From positions 206,770,001 to 206,834,000 of the forward strand of contig OX597814.1 of assembly GCA_951406725.2 (NCBI GenBank): a stretch of DNA of 64,000 nt. Reading direction: 5' to 3'. This DNA is from Octopus vulgaris (taxonomy: Eukaryota). The first letter of the stretch is position 1. Every line of letters begins with the position of its first letter. Below are positions 1-52,950 of the stretch, in pieces. Position numbers and translations under genes: made by a program. A model generated the notes under the pieces. That model worked only from the letters and a program-made list of their open reading frames with translations. It was not told the origin of the DNA and searched no databases.

Positions 1-339
1 TGTCTGCTACGGCCTAGAAATTGGTTAAGGGACATTTAATAACTGTACAGAAATCTGATAAACCAGCAGTGGTACCATCACAGAGGTAACTCCATTTAGA
101 TATCTCAAATGATCTTCTCTCACTAACTCTTTTATCATCTTTTGGAATTAGATTTTGATGTGTATGGTGAATATGGATATGGGGTGAGTAGAAGAGTGGG
201 GTTCCACAAAATGCCACCCAAACAAGTTCAGTGGTAAATATTGGCAAGGGACAGGCTCTCCCAATGATAAAACATCATTTCCTGAAACCTGTTTGATGTC
301 ACATGGTGTCATGTGATGACAAAATGTCCTGGATTCAAA

Positions 340-775
340 GAGATAAGCTCAATATCTCGTGTGATCACTATTAGTGTTGATTACTACCCGGCATCTTCTG
401 CACATTGAATGCACCAAACGATTGATGAAAGCCATGGGGATAGCAGCTGACACTCTGTTAAAACCTGCAGTGAGTTGTCTCTGAGTTTTCAGTCTTGGAC
501 GGATGTCATTTAGCCTTCTTTAGGGTTTCATCCCACAGGTGCTCTATAGGGTTTGAGTCTGGACTGAAGCCAGTGTCTAGATGTTGATGTTGTTGGAGGA
601 AGCCTGTTGTCAACCTGGCAGTATGGTCACGGGCATTGTTATGTCAGAACACGTAATTCCAACAACAGGCAAAGTATGGCACAATGTGAGGTCTCCAAAT
701 TTGGTCAATATAGCAAGCAACAGTTACTCCATTTCCTCAGCCTTCACCAAAGTTTTGGAAGGCCACCAGTTCAGC
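340..775 (-). mobile_element. Degenerate Tc1-like transposase fragment in the last intron of PARP copy A
   Basis: Minus-strand frames contain DNNARDHTAR and SPDSNPIEHLWD, resembling the Tc1 DNA(P)xH and SPDLNPIE motifs. Confidence 0.7.
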
Positions 776-1507: not shown

Positions 1508-1770
1508 GCACATATGGTGAAGGTGTTTATTTTGCCAAAAGCATCCGATATTCTGCAGATGATACCTATTCTACTCCTGACCATCGCAGAATAAAGACAA
1601 TATACAAATGCAGTGTTCTTGTGGGAAGAGTGATTCAAGGACAACGTAGATTAAAAGTTTTACATGGTTCTTGCAATTCTGCGGTTGATGATATTCAAAG
1701 ACCCAATATTTATGTTACTTTTGATGACTCTCAAGCATATCCTAATTATTTGATTACATTCTCTAATTGA
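1508..1770 (+). CDS. PARP14: Terminal coding exon of PARP14/15-like mono-ADP-ribosyltransferase, copy A (upstream exons lie outside the window)
   Basis: Acceptor ttcttag at 1501-1507, phase 1. Translates GTYGEGVYFAKSIRYSADDTYSTPD...PNIYVTFDDSQAYPNYLITFSN*, matching the PARP14/15 catalytic C-terminus (YGxGxYFA, YS, QAYPxYLIxF). Symbol indicates family, not proven orthology. Confidence 0.9.
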
Positions 1771-1789: not shown

Positions 1790-2505
1790 CTTTGAGTTGA
1801 GATTTGTAATTCTAAAAGTATTCAAATGTTTAACACTAAAACTTCAATTTTATAACACTTAAAACTATTTGAATTTTTAAAACTAATGCTGTTCAAATTT
1901 GTAACTGTAAAATTATTCAGATTTGTAACAGGAAAATTATTCAGATTTGTAGCATTAAAACTATTCAAATATTTAACAGTAAAATTATTCAAATTTGTAA
2001 CTGTGAAACTATTCAAATTTGTAACAGTAAAATTATTCAAATTTGTAACAGTGAAACTATTCAAATTTTTAACAGTAAAATTATTCAATTTTGTAACAGT
2101 GAAACTATTCAAATTTGTAACAGTAAAATTATTCAATTTTGTAACAGTGAAACTATTCAAATTTGTAACAGTAAAATTATTCAATTTTGTAACAGTGAAA
2201 CTATTCAAATTTGTAACACTAAAATTATTCAAATTTGTAACAGTGAAACTATTCAAATTTGTAACAGTAAAATTATTCAATTTTGTAACAGTGAAACTAT
2301 TCAAATTTGTAACAGTAAAATTATTCAAATTTGTAACAGTGAAACTATTCAAATTTGTAACACTAAAATTATTCAATTTTGTAACAGTGAAACTATTCAA
2401 ATTTGTAACAGTAAAATTATTCAAATTTGTAACAGTGAAACTATTCAAATTTGTAACAGTAAAATTATTCAGATTTTTTACACTAAAACAATTGAATATA
2501 TTTTA
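1790..2505 (+). repeat. 24-bp minisatellite (48-bp higher-order dimer) just downstream of the copy A stop codon
   Basis: Alternating aaatttgtaacagtaaaattattc / aaatttgtaacagtgaaactattc, about 25 good units with degenerate edges. Confidence 0.95.
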
Positions 2506-34383: not shown

Positions 34384-35210
34384 TAAAATATATTCAATTG
34401 TTTTAGTGTCAAAAATCTGAATAATTTTACTGTTACAAATTTGAATAGTTTCACTGTTACAAATTTGAATAATTTTACTGTTACAAATTTGAATAGTTTC
34501 ACTGTTACAAATTTGAATAATTTTAGTGTTACAAATTTGAATAGTTTCACTGTTACAAAATTGAATAATTTTACTGTTACAAATTTGAATAGTTTCACTG
34601 TTACAAATTTGAATAATTTTAGTGTTACAAATTTGAATAGTTTCACTGTTACAAAATTGAATAATTTTACTGTTACAAATTTGAATAGTTTCACTGTTAC
34701 AAATTTGAATAATTTTACTGTTACAAATTTGAATAGTTTCACTGTTACAAAATTGAATAATTTTAGTGTTACAAATTTGAATAGTTTCACTGTTACAAAT
34801 TTGAATAATTTTACTGTTACAAATTTGAATAGTTTCACTGTTACAAAATTGAATAATTTTACTGTTACAAATTTGAATAGTTTCACTGTGACAAATTTGA
34901 ATAATTTTACTGTTACAAATTTGAATAGTTTCACTGTTACAAATTTGAATAATTTTACTGTTAAAAATTTGAATAGTTTCACAGTTACAAATTTGAATAA
35001 TTTTAGTGTTACAAATTTGAATAGTGGTAGTGATACAAGTTTTAATAGTTTTAATGCTACAAATCTGAATAATTTTCCTGTTACAAATCTGAATAATTTT
35101 ACAGTTACAAATTTGAACAGCATTAGTTTTAAAAATTCAAATAGTTTTAAGTGTTACAAAATTTGAAGTTTTAGTGTTAAACATTTGAATACTTTTAGAA
35201 TTACAAATCT
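34384..35210 (-). repeat. 24-bp minisatellite downstream of the copy B stop codon
   Basis: Same unit in reverse complement, about 30 units. Confidence 0.95.
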
Positions 35211-35214
35211 CAAC

Positions 35215-35491
35215 TCAAAGTATTACTAAAGCCTTAGAGAATGTAATCAAATAATTAGGATATGCTTGAGAGTCATCAAAAGTAACATAAATATCGGGTA
35301 TTTGAATATCATCAACAGCAGAATTGTAAGGATCCTGTAAAACTTTTAATCCCTGGGTCCTTGTATCATTCTTCCCACAAGAACACTGCATTTGTATATT
35401 GTCTTTATTCTGCGATGGTCAGGAGTAGAATAGGTATCATCTGCAGAATATCGGATCTTTTTGGAAAAATAAACACCTTCACCACGTGTGC
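35215..35491 (-). pseudogene. PARP14: Terminal exon of PARP14/15-like copy B, with a 1-nt frameshift (possible pseudogene or assembly error)
   Basis: Reverse complement of the copy A exon, acceptor ttcttag at 35492-35498. Reads GTRGEGVYFSKKIRYSADDTY...; GGACCCAGGGATTAAAA is 1 nt shorter than copy A, giving TAA at 35348-35346. The ancestral frame continues LKVLQDPYNSAVDDIQIPDIYVTFDDSQAYPNYLITFSKALVIL*. Confidence 0.8.
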
Positions 35492-38632: not shown

Positions 38633-38810
38633 CATTTTTACCACAAGAGCTATGGTTGAAACCATATTTATTTATTCTATCAACAGATCCTACAGTAGTA
38701 CCATGCCAAAGGCCATCAACTTCATTTGTAATGCTTGGATTTTCTGCCTCAAATTGTTTTTTCAATGATTGGTATCTCTGGTATAATGCTCTATTTTGAA
38801 TTCTCTCAAT
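38633..38810 (-). CDS. PARP14: PARP14/15-like copy B, penultimate exon (catalytic His)
   Basis: ctacag acceptor, gtaagt donor, 178 nt, phase 0 to 1. IERIQNRALYQRYQSLKKQFEAENPSITNEVDGLWHGTTVGSVDRINKYGFNHSSCGKN(G) carries the IERIQN and HGT..GFN motifs and is in phase with the last exon. Confidence 0.9.
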
Positions 38811-39399: not shown

Positions 39400-39533
39400 T
39401 TTGATTATATGATAGGAAGGCAAATTCCGACGGAAAGTGGCCTGGATGTCATCATATTCTGATCCATTTGTGACTCGAACAATTTTAATTAATTCCTTGT
39501 CTCCCATTGATGACCATGTATCTGGGATTGGTT
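39400..39533 (-). CDS. PARP14: PARP14/15-like copy B, exon at the start of the catalytic domain
   Basis: ctttag acceptor, gtttgt donor, 134 nt, phase 1 to 0. (E)PIPDTWSSMGDKELIKIVRVTNGSEYDDIQATFRRNLPSYHIIK resembles the PARP14 IPxxW..EY..V...F segment and splices in frame to IERIQN. Confidence 0.85.
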
Positions 39534-44850: not shown

Positions 44851-44852
44851 TA

Positions 44853-45470
44853 TTATATAGATAGAAAACTATTATAGAGATAGAAAACTATTATATAGAT
44901 AGAAAACTATTATAGAGAGAAGACTATAATATAGATAGAAAACTATTATATAGCTAGGAAACAATTGTATAGATAGAAAATTATTATATAGATAGAAAGC
45001 TATTATATAGATAGAAAGCTATTACATAGATAGAACACTATTATAGAGATAGAAAATTATTATATAGATAGAAAACTATTATATGGATAGAAAACAATTA
45101 TGTAGATAGAAAACTATTATATAGATAGAAAACTATTATAGAGATAGAAAACTATTATATGGATAGAAAACTATTATATATATAGAAAAACTATTATAGA
45201 GATAGAAAACTATTATATGGATAGAAAACAATTATGTAGATAGAAAACTATTATATAGATAGAAAACTATTATAGAGATAGAAAACTATTATATGGATAG
45301 AAAACTATTATATATATAGAAAAACTATTATAGAGATAGAAAACTATTATAGAGATAGAAAACTATTGTATAGATAGAAAACTATTATATAGATAGAAAA
45401 CTATTTTAGAGATAGAAAACTATTATAGAGATAGAAAACTATTATAGAGATAGATAACTATTATATATAT
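44853..45470 (+). repeat. 19-bp minisatellite (atagaaaactattatagag), block 1
   Basis: Direct tandem repeat visible in the sequence. Confidence 0.95.
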
Positions 45471-45471
45471 A

Positions 45472-46492: not shown

Positions 46493-47088
46493 TATAGAAA
46501 AACTATTATAGAGATAGAAAACAATTGTATAGATAGAAAACTATTATAGAGATAGAAAACTATTATGTAGATAGAAAACTATTATATAGATAGAAAACTA
46601 TTATATAGATAGAAAACTATTATATAGATAGAAAAACTATTATAGAGATAGAAAACTATTATAGAGATAGAAAACTATTATAGAGATAGAAAACTATTAT
46701 AGAGATAGAAAACTATAATAGAGATAGAAAACTATTATAGAGATAGAAAACTATTATAGAGATAGAAAACTATTATAGAGATAGAAAACTATTATATAGA
46801 TAGAAAACTATTATAGAGATAGAAAACTATTATAGAGATAGAAAACTATTATAGAGATAGAAAACTATTATATAGATAGAAAACTATTATATAGATAGAA
46901 AACTATTATAGAGATAGAAAACTATTATAGAGATAGAAAACTATTATAGAGATAGAAAACTATTATATAGATAGAAAACTATTATAGAGATAGAAAACTA
47001 TTATATGGATAGAAAACTATTTTATATATAGAAAACTATTATAGAGATAGAAAACAATTGTATAAATAGAAACTATTATAGAGATAGA
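46493..47088 (+). repeat. 19-bp minisatellite, block 2
   Basis: Same unit, very homogeneous. Confidence 0.95.
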
Positions 47089-50000: not shown

Positions 50001-52950
50001 TACTCTTCACCCAGGAGGGTCTTTGTATTTAAGAGCAACCCTGCATCCCGCTGTCTGGTGAGGATGAAGTCTATTTGGCTAGCGGAGTCTCCTGACTGAT
50101 AAGTTATAAGGTGGCAGTCAGGCTTCCTGAAGTTAGTGTTGCAGATTAAAAGGTTACATGCATCACAGAATTCCAGTAGTCTAGTTCCCTCATCATTTCT
50201 GGTGCCAATACCATGGCCACCGTGTACCCCAGTGAAGATACCCGATTCCCACCCAACATGCCCATTAAAGTCTTCACCCACAAAGATGAGGTCCTTGCCA
50301 CTAGTCTTTGAGGTAGCCTGTAGAAGGGTATCATAAAAGTGGTCCTTCTGATCATTTGGTAGCCCCGCATGTGGGGCATAGGCGGAGATAATCATAGCTG
50401 TGCCACTCTGTAGGACTAACCTGAGCTTAAGCACTCTATCGCAAACCCTGACAACCTCTATGACCTTATCCACCCATTTCTCCGCAAGGAGAATGCCTAC
50501 ACCCCCTACCCCATCCATGTTACCTTGCCAGAAGACTTTATACCTATGTTCCTTGCCTGTGAGGACCCTAGCTGAAGCACCTCTTGTATGCAGCATACAT
50601 CAACCCGTCTTCTCTCAAGCATCTCTACAATCTCACTAGACCTACCTTTCAGTGTACCAACATTGACAGTGCCAACTCTGAAAACTGGGAAGGAGATGTG
50701 GGGGGAGGGGTGCAATTCAGCACCTGAAAAGAAGAGGGTTGTTGTGGTAGTGGTGAACGTTTTTTAGGCATTTTTCGTCTGATCTCTCTTCCGACCTGAA
50801 AACATTCAAGCATTTAGGCATGCTAAGGTTCTGGCCCCTGCCTACGGCAGGGGCTGGTGTTAGCAGCATTGTGAGCATAAGCAGCAGCATTGTAAGTATA
50901 AGCATTAAGGTCATTGATGGTGTAGATGTAAGCTCTGTGGTAGAAATACTGAAATTCTAGGTGTTAGTAGTATTCTAAGCAAGCATTATTGTCATTGAGC
51001 AACGTGGTTTAAGCAGTGTAGCAGAAACATGGATATTCTAGAGATGGGCTGGGGGGGGTTCCAGCAGGGAGAAGAGAGAGTGGGGGAGGAAATGGGGGAG
51101 AGAGTGCAGGTAATATAGGGGAGCACCAGTGGGGAGGGGTGTTAGGAGAAACGATGACAGGTAGGGGTGGTGGCAGGTTCAAGACAAAATTAAACGTAGG
51201 ATATCACGAGAGGGGGGACTGGAAGGAGGGGAAGATAAGCAGGGGTAATACATAGTGAAATAGCGTATTGAGGAGGAGGGGTTCGAGGAGTAGACACCCA
51301 TAATGGTGGTGGGAGAAGGGATATCCGGTGTAGATGGAGAAATATATAGAGAGATATCGGGTATTGGTGGTGGGGGTGGGAAAGGGCGGGTGCACCGCGA
51401 ATGGCGAAGTTTTGATTCAGGAGAGAGCGGCAGATGTATGGAAAGAGAAGAATTAGGCAAACGGGGTTTGAAGAAACAATGTCATAGACAACGGACAAAT
51501 TATCGTAGAGAGCGAAGAAAGGACAAAGTAATATGGAGAAAGGAAGAAAGAAGGAAAGAAAGAAGAAATTATCAGCACATAGGGATGAATTATTACAAGA
51601 TAGGACTAAAAAAGATTATATTTTTGGGAGACAATCGAATGGCGAAGTTTTGATTCAAAGGAAGGAAAGAAGAATTTATCAGCACATAGGGGCGCAAAGG
51701 AAAGAAAGAAGAAATTATCAGCACATAGGAACGAATTATTACGAGATAGGACTAAAAAAGATTATATTTTTGGGAGACAATCGAATGGCGAAGTTTTGAT
51801 TCAAAGGAAGGAAAGAAGAATTTATCAGCACATAGGGGCGCAAAGGAAAGAAAGAAGAAATTATCAGCACATAGGAACGAATTATTACGAGATAGGACTA
51901 AAAAAGATTATATTTTTGGGAGACAATCGAATGGCGAAGTTTTGATTCAAAGGAAGGAAAGAAGAATTTATCAGCACATAGGGGCGCAAAGGAAAGAAAG
52001 AAGAAATTATCAGCACATAGGAACGAATTATTACGAGATAGGACTAAAAAAGATTATATTTTTGGGAGACAATCGAATGGCGAAGTTTTGATTCAAAGGA
52101 AGGAAAGAAGAATTTATCAGCACATAGGGGCGCAAAGGAAAGAAAGAAGAAATTATCAGCACATAGGGACGAATTATTACGAGATAGGACTAAAAAAGAT
52201 TATATTTTTGGGAGACAATCGAATGGCGAAGTTTTGATTCAAAGGAAGGAAAGAAGAATTTATCAGCACATAGGGGCGCAAAGGAAAGAAAGAAGAAATT
52301 ATCAGCACATAGGGACGAATTATTACGAGATAGGACTAAAAAAGATTATATTTTTGGGAGACAATCGAATGGCGAAGTTTTGATTCAAAGGAAGGAAAGA
52401 AGAATTTATCAGCACATAGGGGCGCAAAGGAAAGAAAGAAGAAATTATCAGCACATAGGAACGAATTATTACGAGATAGGACTAAAAAAGATTATATTTT
52501 TGGGAGACAATCGAATGGCGAAGTTTTGATTCAAAGGAAGGAAAGAAGAATTTATCAGCACATAGGGGCGCAAAGGAAAGAAAGAAGAAATTATCAGCAC
52601 ATAGGGATGAATTATTACGAGATAGGACTAAAAAAGATTATATTTTTGGGAGACAATCGAATGGCGAAGTTTTGATTCAAAGGAAGGAAAGAAGAATTTA
52701 TCAGCACATAGGGGCGCAAAGGAAAGAAAGAAGAAATTATCAGCACATAGGGACGAATTATTATGAGATAGGACTAAAAAAGATTATATTTTTGGGAGAC
52801 AATATCAACAACAGTTTAGCTCACGAAAAGAAGCAACATGCAGATTAGTAAATAGATAATACATTTTTTAGTGTTAGAGGCGAATGTTGTACGAGTGGTC
52901 AAGAAGTGAAAAGAAATTCTTAGCTTATCTAGCTTCGGCCATCGCTGCTC
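47089..52950 (-). mobile_element. Full-length but frameshifted RTE LINE with long 5' UTR
   Basis: VGTVNVGTLKGR/CCIQE (APE), SQIDFIL, NYRGIKLL, DLEKAFD, QGSALSP, YADD, PHD-like Cys cluster, (GAT)n tail at 47089-47108. Confidence 0.92.
51540..52803 (+). repeat. 146-bp tandem array (~8.7 copies) inside the RTE 5' region
   Basis: tgattcaaag recurs at 51651, 51797, 51943, 52089, 52235, 52381, 52527 and 52673. Confidence 0.95.

Follow-up and report, generated by a model that had tools for sequence, protein, structure and literature searches.

An octopus PARP14-like catalytic exon belongs to a young family of at least 17 copies with an excess of amino-acid-changing divergence, probably under diversifying selection

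The exon at positions 1508..1770 (plus strand) of the window, the 64,000-nucleotide stretch of Octopus vulgaris DNA analysed here, codes for one half of the catalytic domain in a PARP14-like gene. Octopus has at least 17 closely related genes of this kind, in which sites that change amino acids vary about three times as much as silent sites and introns. We give a probability of roughly 0.7 to the reading that this excess reflects diversifying selection around a conserved catalytic core, with gene conversion likely shuffling the variants among the copies.

This last coding exon of copy A matches the PARP/ARTD catalytic domain (PF00644) by itself, with 33.4 bits against a cut-off of 26.7, and covers its C-terminal half, including the tyrosine of the catalytic triad (1528-1530), the third triad residue, an isoleucine (1708-1710), and the stop codon (1768-1770). 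Two upstream PARP exons of copy A lie outside the window (G000:C1:206768785-206768918 and 206769309-206769486), and at least five macrodomain modules are found further upstream, within 100 kb. Self-comparison of the window reveals an inverted duplication (1-774 matching 38119-37360, and 1437-2961 matching 35561-33928), so that copies A and B form an inverted pair; the preliminary description of this DNA had placed both exons correctly. Copy B, on the minus strand, has its last coding exon at 35215..35491, the second PARP-domain exon (178 nt, with the triad histidine and the start of the D-loop) at 38633..38810 and the first (134 nt) at 39400..39533. Outside the window the gene extends as far as about +153,900 and includes two macrodomain modules along with a long N-terminal exon; the database protein P0031 maps on copy B from 35349 to about +153,900. 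A long intron of copy B holds a 146-bp tandem array (51551-52803, 8.6 copies, 99% matches) and, 1 kb apart, a pair of satellite arrays (44851-45471 and 46494-47088), each with about 32 copies of a 19-bp unit.

P0031 contains both PF01661 and PF00644, and macrodomain exons lie upstream of both copies, as in macro-PARPs; the annotations of three other copies (P0011, P0013 and P0024) include no macrodomains. The precomputed domains of P0031 include PF23085 and not PF02825, and on its domain content the family appears PARP14-like and is assigned only as such, not as PARP14 proper. The H-Y-I/L triad is preserved, with His in 17/17 copies and Tyr and Ile each in 16/17, the isoleucine aligning with L659 of PARP15; the copies are accordingly predicted to be mono-ADP-ribosyltransferases with a His-Tyr-Ile triad, supplied by macrodomains. 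The exception is g7.64, where Ser replaces the triad Tyr, Asn occupies the third triad position and the core has further changes, in a frame that is open; its counterpart in O. sinensis, P0030, shares this last exon, and g7.64 is likely a catalytically dead copy retained in both species. Copies A and B have His at the position of PARP15 R576, which is Arg in 89 of the 92 outgroup proteins and which, according to PMC12572374, anchors the dimer required for activity. Copy B further carries Arg at the Y586 position, where the outgroups are mostly aromatic or hydrophobic, and Ser in a column that is Ala in 92/92 outgroup proteins. The activity of A and B, with His at the R576 position and the Arg of B at Y586, may differ. 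Compared with human PARP14 and the other 12 copies, A, B, g7.60, g8.572 and g8.578 all lack one codon where the last exon begins (D-loop end, window 1508-1512).

A genome search, in which 17 of 17 candidates were scored, recovered at least 17 copies of each of the three PARP exons, and every one lies on contig C1; splice sites are intact in every copy, and among these three exons only the frame of copy B is broken. The nearest database proteins are PARP14/15-like proteins of Octopus sinensis, O. vulgaris and O. bimaculoides, several of the O. vulgaris proteins being at zero distance from translated genome copies, and the copies form an octopus-only clade with the O. sinensis and O. bimaculoides proteins (FastTree with 25 of the 92 outgroup proteins and no root test). 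The expansion is young. The copies comprise two groups (11 and 6) near opposite ends of the 225.7-Mb contig, at about 5.3-9.5 Mb and 206.8-216.4 Mb, that have sequence patches in common. The introns of g8.00 and g9.11 are largely unalignable with those of the other 15 copies and their exons are only 9-15% different; these two copies are either an older branch or the outcome of exon-limited exchange.

Between A and B, the last exon differs by 18 substitutions in 253 aligned bases (7.1%; A 1508-1770 against B 35491-35239), the intron of A at 1..774 (plus strand, homologous to copy B 38119-37360) by 16 in 760 (2.1%), and the 3' flank outside the satellite by 17 in 707. Exact alignment thus bears out the earlier substitution counts, and the claim that the exon diverged faster than the intron and flank holds in a Fisher test (p=1.7e-4). 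Against all collinear non-coding blocks over about 45 kb, drawn with 200 kb of neighbouring DNA, the contrast is stronger (baseline 210/9375, 2.2%; p=3e-5). The baselines relied on, two introns and the collinear blocks, exclude the satellite that occupies part of A's 3' flank (24-bp unit, 28.7 copies; 1802..2488, plus strand; B counterpart 34413-35208). A pairwise blastn comparison of flanks for all 136 pairs was contaminated by satellite and SINE matches (A-B 148/3178) and was discarded and replaced. The A-B exon excess is also present in the two upstream PARP exons (11/134 and 12/179) and in the last macrodomain module (exon 52/617 against non-coding 55/2876). Over the three PARP exons, 40 of 561 bases differ, with pN of 0.078, above the non-coding baseline (p=2e-9), and pS of 0.049 (p=0.07 against the same baseline). 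Within this pair, dN>dS is not significant over the three exons (34/433 non-synonymous against 6/128 synonymous, p=0.33), the comparison reaching p=0.05 when only the four clear synonymous changes are counted. An exon-over-intron excess in a single pair cannot tell selection from conversion.

The last exon contains 12 residue differences plus one broken codon (11-12 had been claimed) and the two clear synonymous changes noted before (ATT/ATA and GCG/GCT). From the D-loop end to the rim of the NAD pocket (1513..1548, plus strand), A and B differ by Y/R, A/S and S/K, differences common to O. sinensis; in the variable segment that precedes the acceptor loop (1630..1707, plus strand), they differ by V/M, in the codons at positions 1642-1650, by HGSC/QDPY at 1663-1674, and by R/I and N/D. 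The HGSC/QDPY change cannot be taken, as it had been, for four new replacements: the H and G of A are common to 2 of the 15 other paralogues, the P of B is present in 4 of the 15, and only the C of A is private. The 87 nt at 1543..1629 (plus strand) carry no A-B difference at all and include two residues that are the same in A and B within each species and different between species; this stretch is a candidate A-B conversion tract.

In copy B, a deletion of 1 nt near 35356 throws the reading out of frame and into a TAA at 35348-35346, where P0031 terminates; a further 10 nt are absent at the position of A's stop codon, which results in a longer tail. Both deletions were overlooked in the earlier alignment, otherwise sound in its substitution counts, and the Q/P difference reported there is an artefact of reading across the first of them. 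We compared contigs of eight runs at the copy B exon; seven of the runs cover 35356 (X6 is without a contig there), and in all seven the extra base is present at whole depth and the deletion in no contig, some of these contigs deriving from other paralogues, five being nearest to B (3-4 differences, by our own assignment) and none known to derive from the assembled individual. Spliced contigs are present for both B-type and A-type copies in runs that are putatively RNA: a B-type contig continues into the upstream exon in X2, X12 and X10 (the call in X10 being a 35-base piece), and an A-type contig in X3 has all five A diagnostic letters. The O. sinensis orthologue of copy B, P0008, has an open frame across the break. 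The frameshift of copy B probably reflects either an error of the assembly or a null allele that is private and overlies a functional lineage. At 35265-35399, a contig of X3 (record 28, organism B) fuses a B-like stretch to the HGS patch of A, a combination found in none of the 17 reference copies. In copy A, the last macrodomain module carries one inserted nucleotide in its first exon (L021:5729, G000:C1:206735729); the six other A and B modules that were aligned lack it. The insertion would break the frame of A, barring an assembly error at that base or skipping of the module.

In O. sinensis, the A-type protein P0006 and the B-type protein P0008, both with intact frames and compared as protein only, cluster with A (support 0.96) and with B (support 0.88), respectively, in the domain tree. 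Among the 29 A-B residue differences, 16 recur between P0006 and P0008, including 9 of the 12 in the last exon, so these differences are neither errors nor decay; most A-B differences are real, older than the species split, a point missed in the preliminary description, and kept in an intact gene. Three columns are identical between the copies within each species yet different between species, and there is some A-B exchange since the split from O. sinensis. Of 189 columns, P0006 differs from A at 25 and P0008 from B at 14, whereas the closest cross-species pairs differ less (1-6 columns in four of nine pairs checked). The proposal that the substitutions are consensus errors, which had been put forward as a possible refutation, or that a single gene with two haplotypes accounts for A and B, draws on the single-base indels in both genes, which may be assembly errors. 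Given that the diagnostic residues recur in two distinct proteins of O. sinensis, one A-type and one B-type, that contigs of other samples contain both types and that A and B lie in inverted orientation with unequal numbers of modules, it is hardly credible.

The argument for selection is carried by the whole family. Tests on intron columns used 15 of the 17 copies, leaving out g8.00 and g9.11, whose introns are mostly unalignable, and the gap codon of A and its subclade as well as the broken codon of B were dropped. Among the 15 copies, 67 of 187 second codon positions segregate, compared to 69 of 429 intron columns (p=1.6e-7) and 10 of 43 fourfold sites, the contrast between second positions and fourfold sites not being significant by this count (p=0.15). 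Nucleotide diversity at second positions amounts to 0.113, compared to 0.039 for fourfold sites and 0.041 for introns; the ratio of second-position to fourfold diversity is 2.9 (bootstrap 1.6-6.3) and that of fourfold to intron diversity 0.94 (0.44-1.71), with a bootstrap that assumes independent codons and a pairwise fourfold measure that is biased low because it needs shared first two bases. For transversions alone, the values are 0.043 and 0.014. The family-wide Nei-Gojobori dN/dS is 1.31 (interval 0.89-1.96), with pN>pS in 116 of 136 pairs. Exon divergence significantly exceeds intron divergence in six of eight disjoint pairs; the excess is not significant in g5.72/g5.52, in g8.00/g9.11 or in the two youngest pairs.

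Purifying selection on the family is clear. There is no in-frame stop among the copies, where about 14.5 would be expected, and among the columns that are conserved across 92 non-octopus homologues, only 19 of 73 show variation between the octopus copies, compared to 69 of 78 for unconserved columns (p=2e-15). In the 82 unconserved or gapped columns, the second position segregates in 50, and six codons carry 5-6 residues among the 17 copies. We simulated mosaic families with 30% or 43% of the codons constrained and omega<=1 elsewhere: none of the 899 replicates matched on the synonymous count reached the observed 200 non-synonymous variants, and 1 of 224 replicates matched on the non-synonymous count had as few synonymous variants. 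All-neutral simulations do reach the observed number of non-synonymous variants (15/149 and 37/278, judged on the non-synonymous and synonymous counts alone), but the all-neutral model is excluded by the missing stops and the conserved core.

These results bear directly on the view that redundant copies are under relaxed selection or in early pseudogene decay, with the exon excess being chance variation of genealogies. The frameshifts of both A and B in the assembly, the Ser of B in the column that is Ala in all 92 outgroup proteins and its Arg at the mostly aromatic or hydrophobic position, the loss of the triad Tyr in g7.64 and the fit of the all-neutral simulations to the two counts would all be in keeping with decay. 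Yet neutrality caps non-synonymous divergence at the intron level, while the unconserved columns segregate at 50/82 against the 69/429 of introns; the frames contain none of the expected stops, the core is conserved, and the unusual residues of B are retained in the intact O. sinensis frame. We consider decay improbable and already largely refuted.

Codon models, fitted with programs that we wrote ourselves, as were the PHI and run tests, agree in direction with the tree-free results. The one-ratio model M0 gives an omega of 1.29, and likelihood ratio tests give 87.9 for M2a versus M1a and 86.3 for M8 versus M8a, with a selected class of omega about 4.7-5.0 at about 16-16.5% of sites. The M8-type signal holds for each exon on its own tree (LRT of 43.5 for the last exon), without B and g7.64, and with F1x4 codon frequencies. 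In this family, however, recombination badly inflates the p-values of site models: null simulations on mosaic trees with omega<=1 yield mean LRTs of 27-43, above 5.99 in 62 of 66 replicates, with a maximum of 83.3 compared to 86.5 observed. The observed LRT exceeds all 66 null replicates; nevertheless, because recombination alone can produce an LRT of up to 83.3, the nominal p-values are void and the claim is carried by the tree-free tests. The fitted M2a predicts too few non-synonymous variants (155, compared to 200 observed) and 107 invariant codons where 80 are observed. A class of sites with dN/dS>1 is found, with recombination inflating both the model p-values and the list of sites.

Recombination itself is evident. 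The PHI statistic is 0.302 versus 0.388 (0/2000 permutations, p<0.0005), the exon trees disagree, and a run test identifies 4 of 136 pairs at p<1/300, uncorrected. For 24 of the 40 A-B differences, both states exist in other paralogues, 7 being private to A and 9 to B. Gene conversion, one of the two explanations offered in the preliminary description, is thus upheld, and its more specific form, a single exon-limited tract from a third paralogue that accounts for the A-B differences, is not. A segment of B at about codons 146-163 does nearly match g7.60/g8.572/g8.578, and the HG of A matches g215.8/g216.4; but these separate patches fit separate donors, 8 of the 17 last-exon differences counted have a state that, within the 17 copies, only A or B carries, and the excess is found in every exon tested and in other pairs. 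A single tract is insufficient because the excess covers macrodomain exons as well as three PARP exons, no elevation is seen at fourfold sites and 16 of the 40 differences are private; we regard it as very improbable. Since conversion is real besides selection, the two earlier readings are not alternatives: both appear to operate, and the support for diversifying selection comes from the 17-copy family, not from the A-B pair.

Conversion could also act in another way. If the copies are older than their introns suggest, conversion would erase intronic and silent differences while selection keeps old copy-specific residues and favours none that are new, for which the L/M opsins of gibbons, as described in PMC3213168, are a precedent. 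The last-exon differences that predate the species split (9/12), the three columns shared within and differing between species, the runs without differences at codons 76-105 and at 1543-1629 of the window, and a Nei-Gojobori dS of 0.09, higher than the intron diversity of 0.041, are all compatible with such a history. Catarrhine L/M opsins likewise show duplicate exons more divergent than introns, along with conversion (PMC3213168). The selection described there, however, preserves a few old tuning residues, and synonymous divergence in the opsins is relatively above the intronic (PMC3213168), whereas in the octopus family fourfold sites match introns and many codons hold 4-6 residues; the six codons with 5-6 residues among 17 copies would require repeated new change. 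A and B, moreover, are no closer in the shared intron columns (20/429) than A is to 13 other copies (17-25/429). This history is unlikely and would still demand selection on amino acids.

Under the preferred reading, diversifying selection would favour varied residues around a conserved catalytic core, for contacts with targets or antagonists, and conversion would spread the resulting patches among the copies. Naive empirical Bayes (not BEB) places 17 codons above a posterior of 0.9, 9 of them in the last exon, in a list that is to be taken as provisional; 16 of the 17 are at columns less than 80% conserved in the outgroups. In the last exon, fast sites at 1537, 1540 and 1546 (plus strand) belong to the segment of the D-loop end and NAD-pocket rim, and those at 1642, 1645 and 1705 (plus strand) to the variable segment before the acceptor loop. 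Three follow the triad Tyr, two precede the acceptor loop and one adjoins the L659 position; one fast site precedes the Tyr that stacks on nicotinamide. Sites were placed by counting along the PARP15 alignment from H559. The reference residues R576, S577, C578, K581, Y586, K588, L659 and D665 are those named in PMC12572374. The suggestion that selection acts on the catalytic surface thus stands as far as the PARP14/15 alignment goes, with core residues conserved and fast sites flanking them; an AlphaFold2 model of P0001 (mean pLDDT 43.7) was discarded. Changes at the D-loop end, the pocket rim and the acceptor loop could alter which targets are modified or which antagonists are bound. A pathogen or immune driver may be proposed by analogy with vertebrate macro-PARPs.

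A more far-reaching reading, which we put forward tentatively and judge rather doubtful, is that octopus independently built a combinatorial ADP-ribosylation repertoire, with at least 17 writer domains whose arms-race residues at the pocket rim and acceptor loop are remixed by conversion and which are joined to variable macrodomain arrays. In the A/B subclade, residues that are otherwise near-invariant from bivalves to mammals are altered (the PARP15 R576 dimer position, the one-codon D-loop deletion and, in B, Y586 and the adjacent Ala); such a writer might have a new substrate, a new dimer mode or a decoy role against octopus viruses. A literature search covering titles and the starts of abstracts, with few subscription papers and no supplements, returned no account of a macro-PARP expansion, or of selection on it, in cephalopods or molluscs; a PARP14-like protein is listed in skin mucus (PMC11431876).

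The kind of system is already known from vertebrate PARP14/15, to which the cephalopod case is an addition. Like these proteins, octopus copies combine macrodomains with a C-terminal PARP domain, and their best matches among solved structures are PARP14 (E=6e-34) and PARP15 (PDB 4PY4, 3GOY, 3BLJ). Vertebrate PARP14 is reported to be positively selected in its PARP domain and its macrodomains, with repeated gene birth and loss (PMC4038475). In contrast, the octopus has at least 17 copies in one genome, with 2-5% intron divergence and with conversion, a term absent from the main text of the vertebrate study (PMC4038475). Unlike PARP14, the octopus proteins have no WWE domain (PF02825) listed among their hits; the third triad residue is Ile where these two vertebrate proteins have Leu; and, given the octopus-only clade, the copies appear not to be one-to-one orthologues of PARP14 or PARP15. 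The cephalopod lineage is not known to have classical adaptive immunity. The macro-PARP arms-race pattern would extend from vertebrates to a cephalopod, with a larger copy number and in the catalytic domain, which suggests that ADP-ribosylation is a contested defence in that lineage, and the natural variants around a fixed core offer a ready panel for asking which residues set the target choice of mono-ADP-ribosyltransferases.
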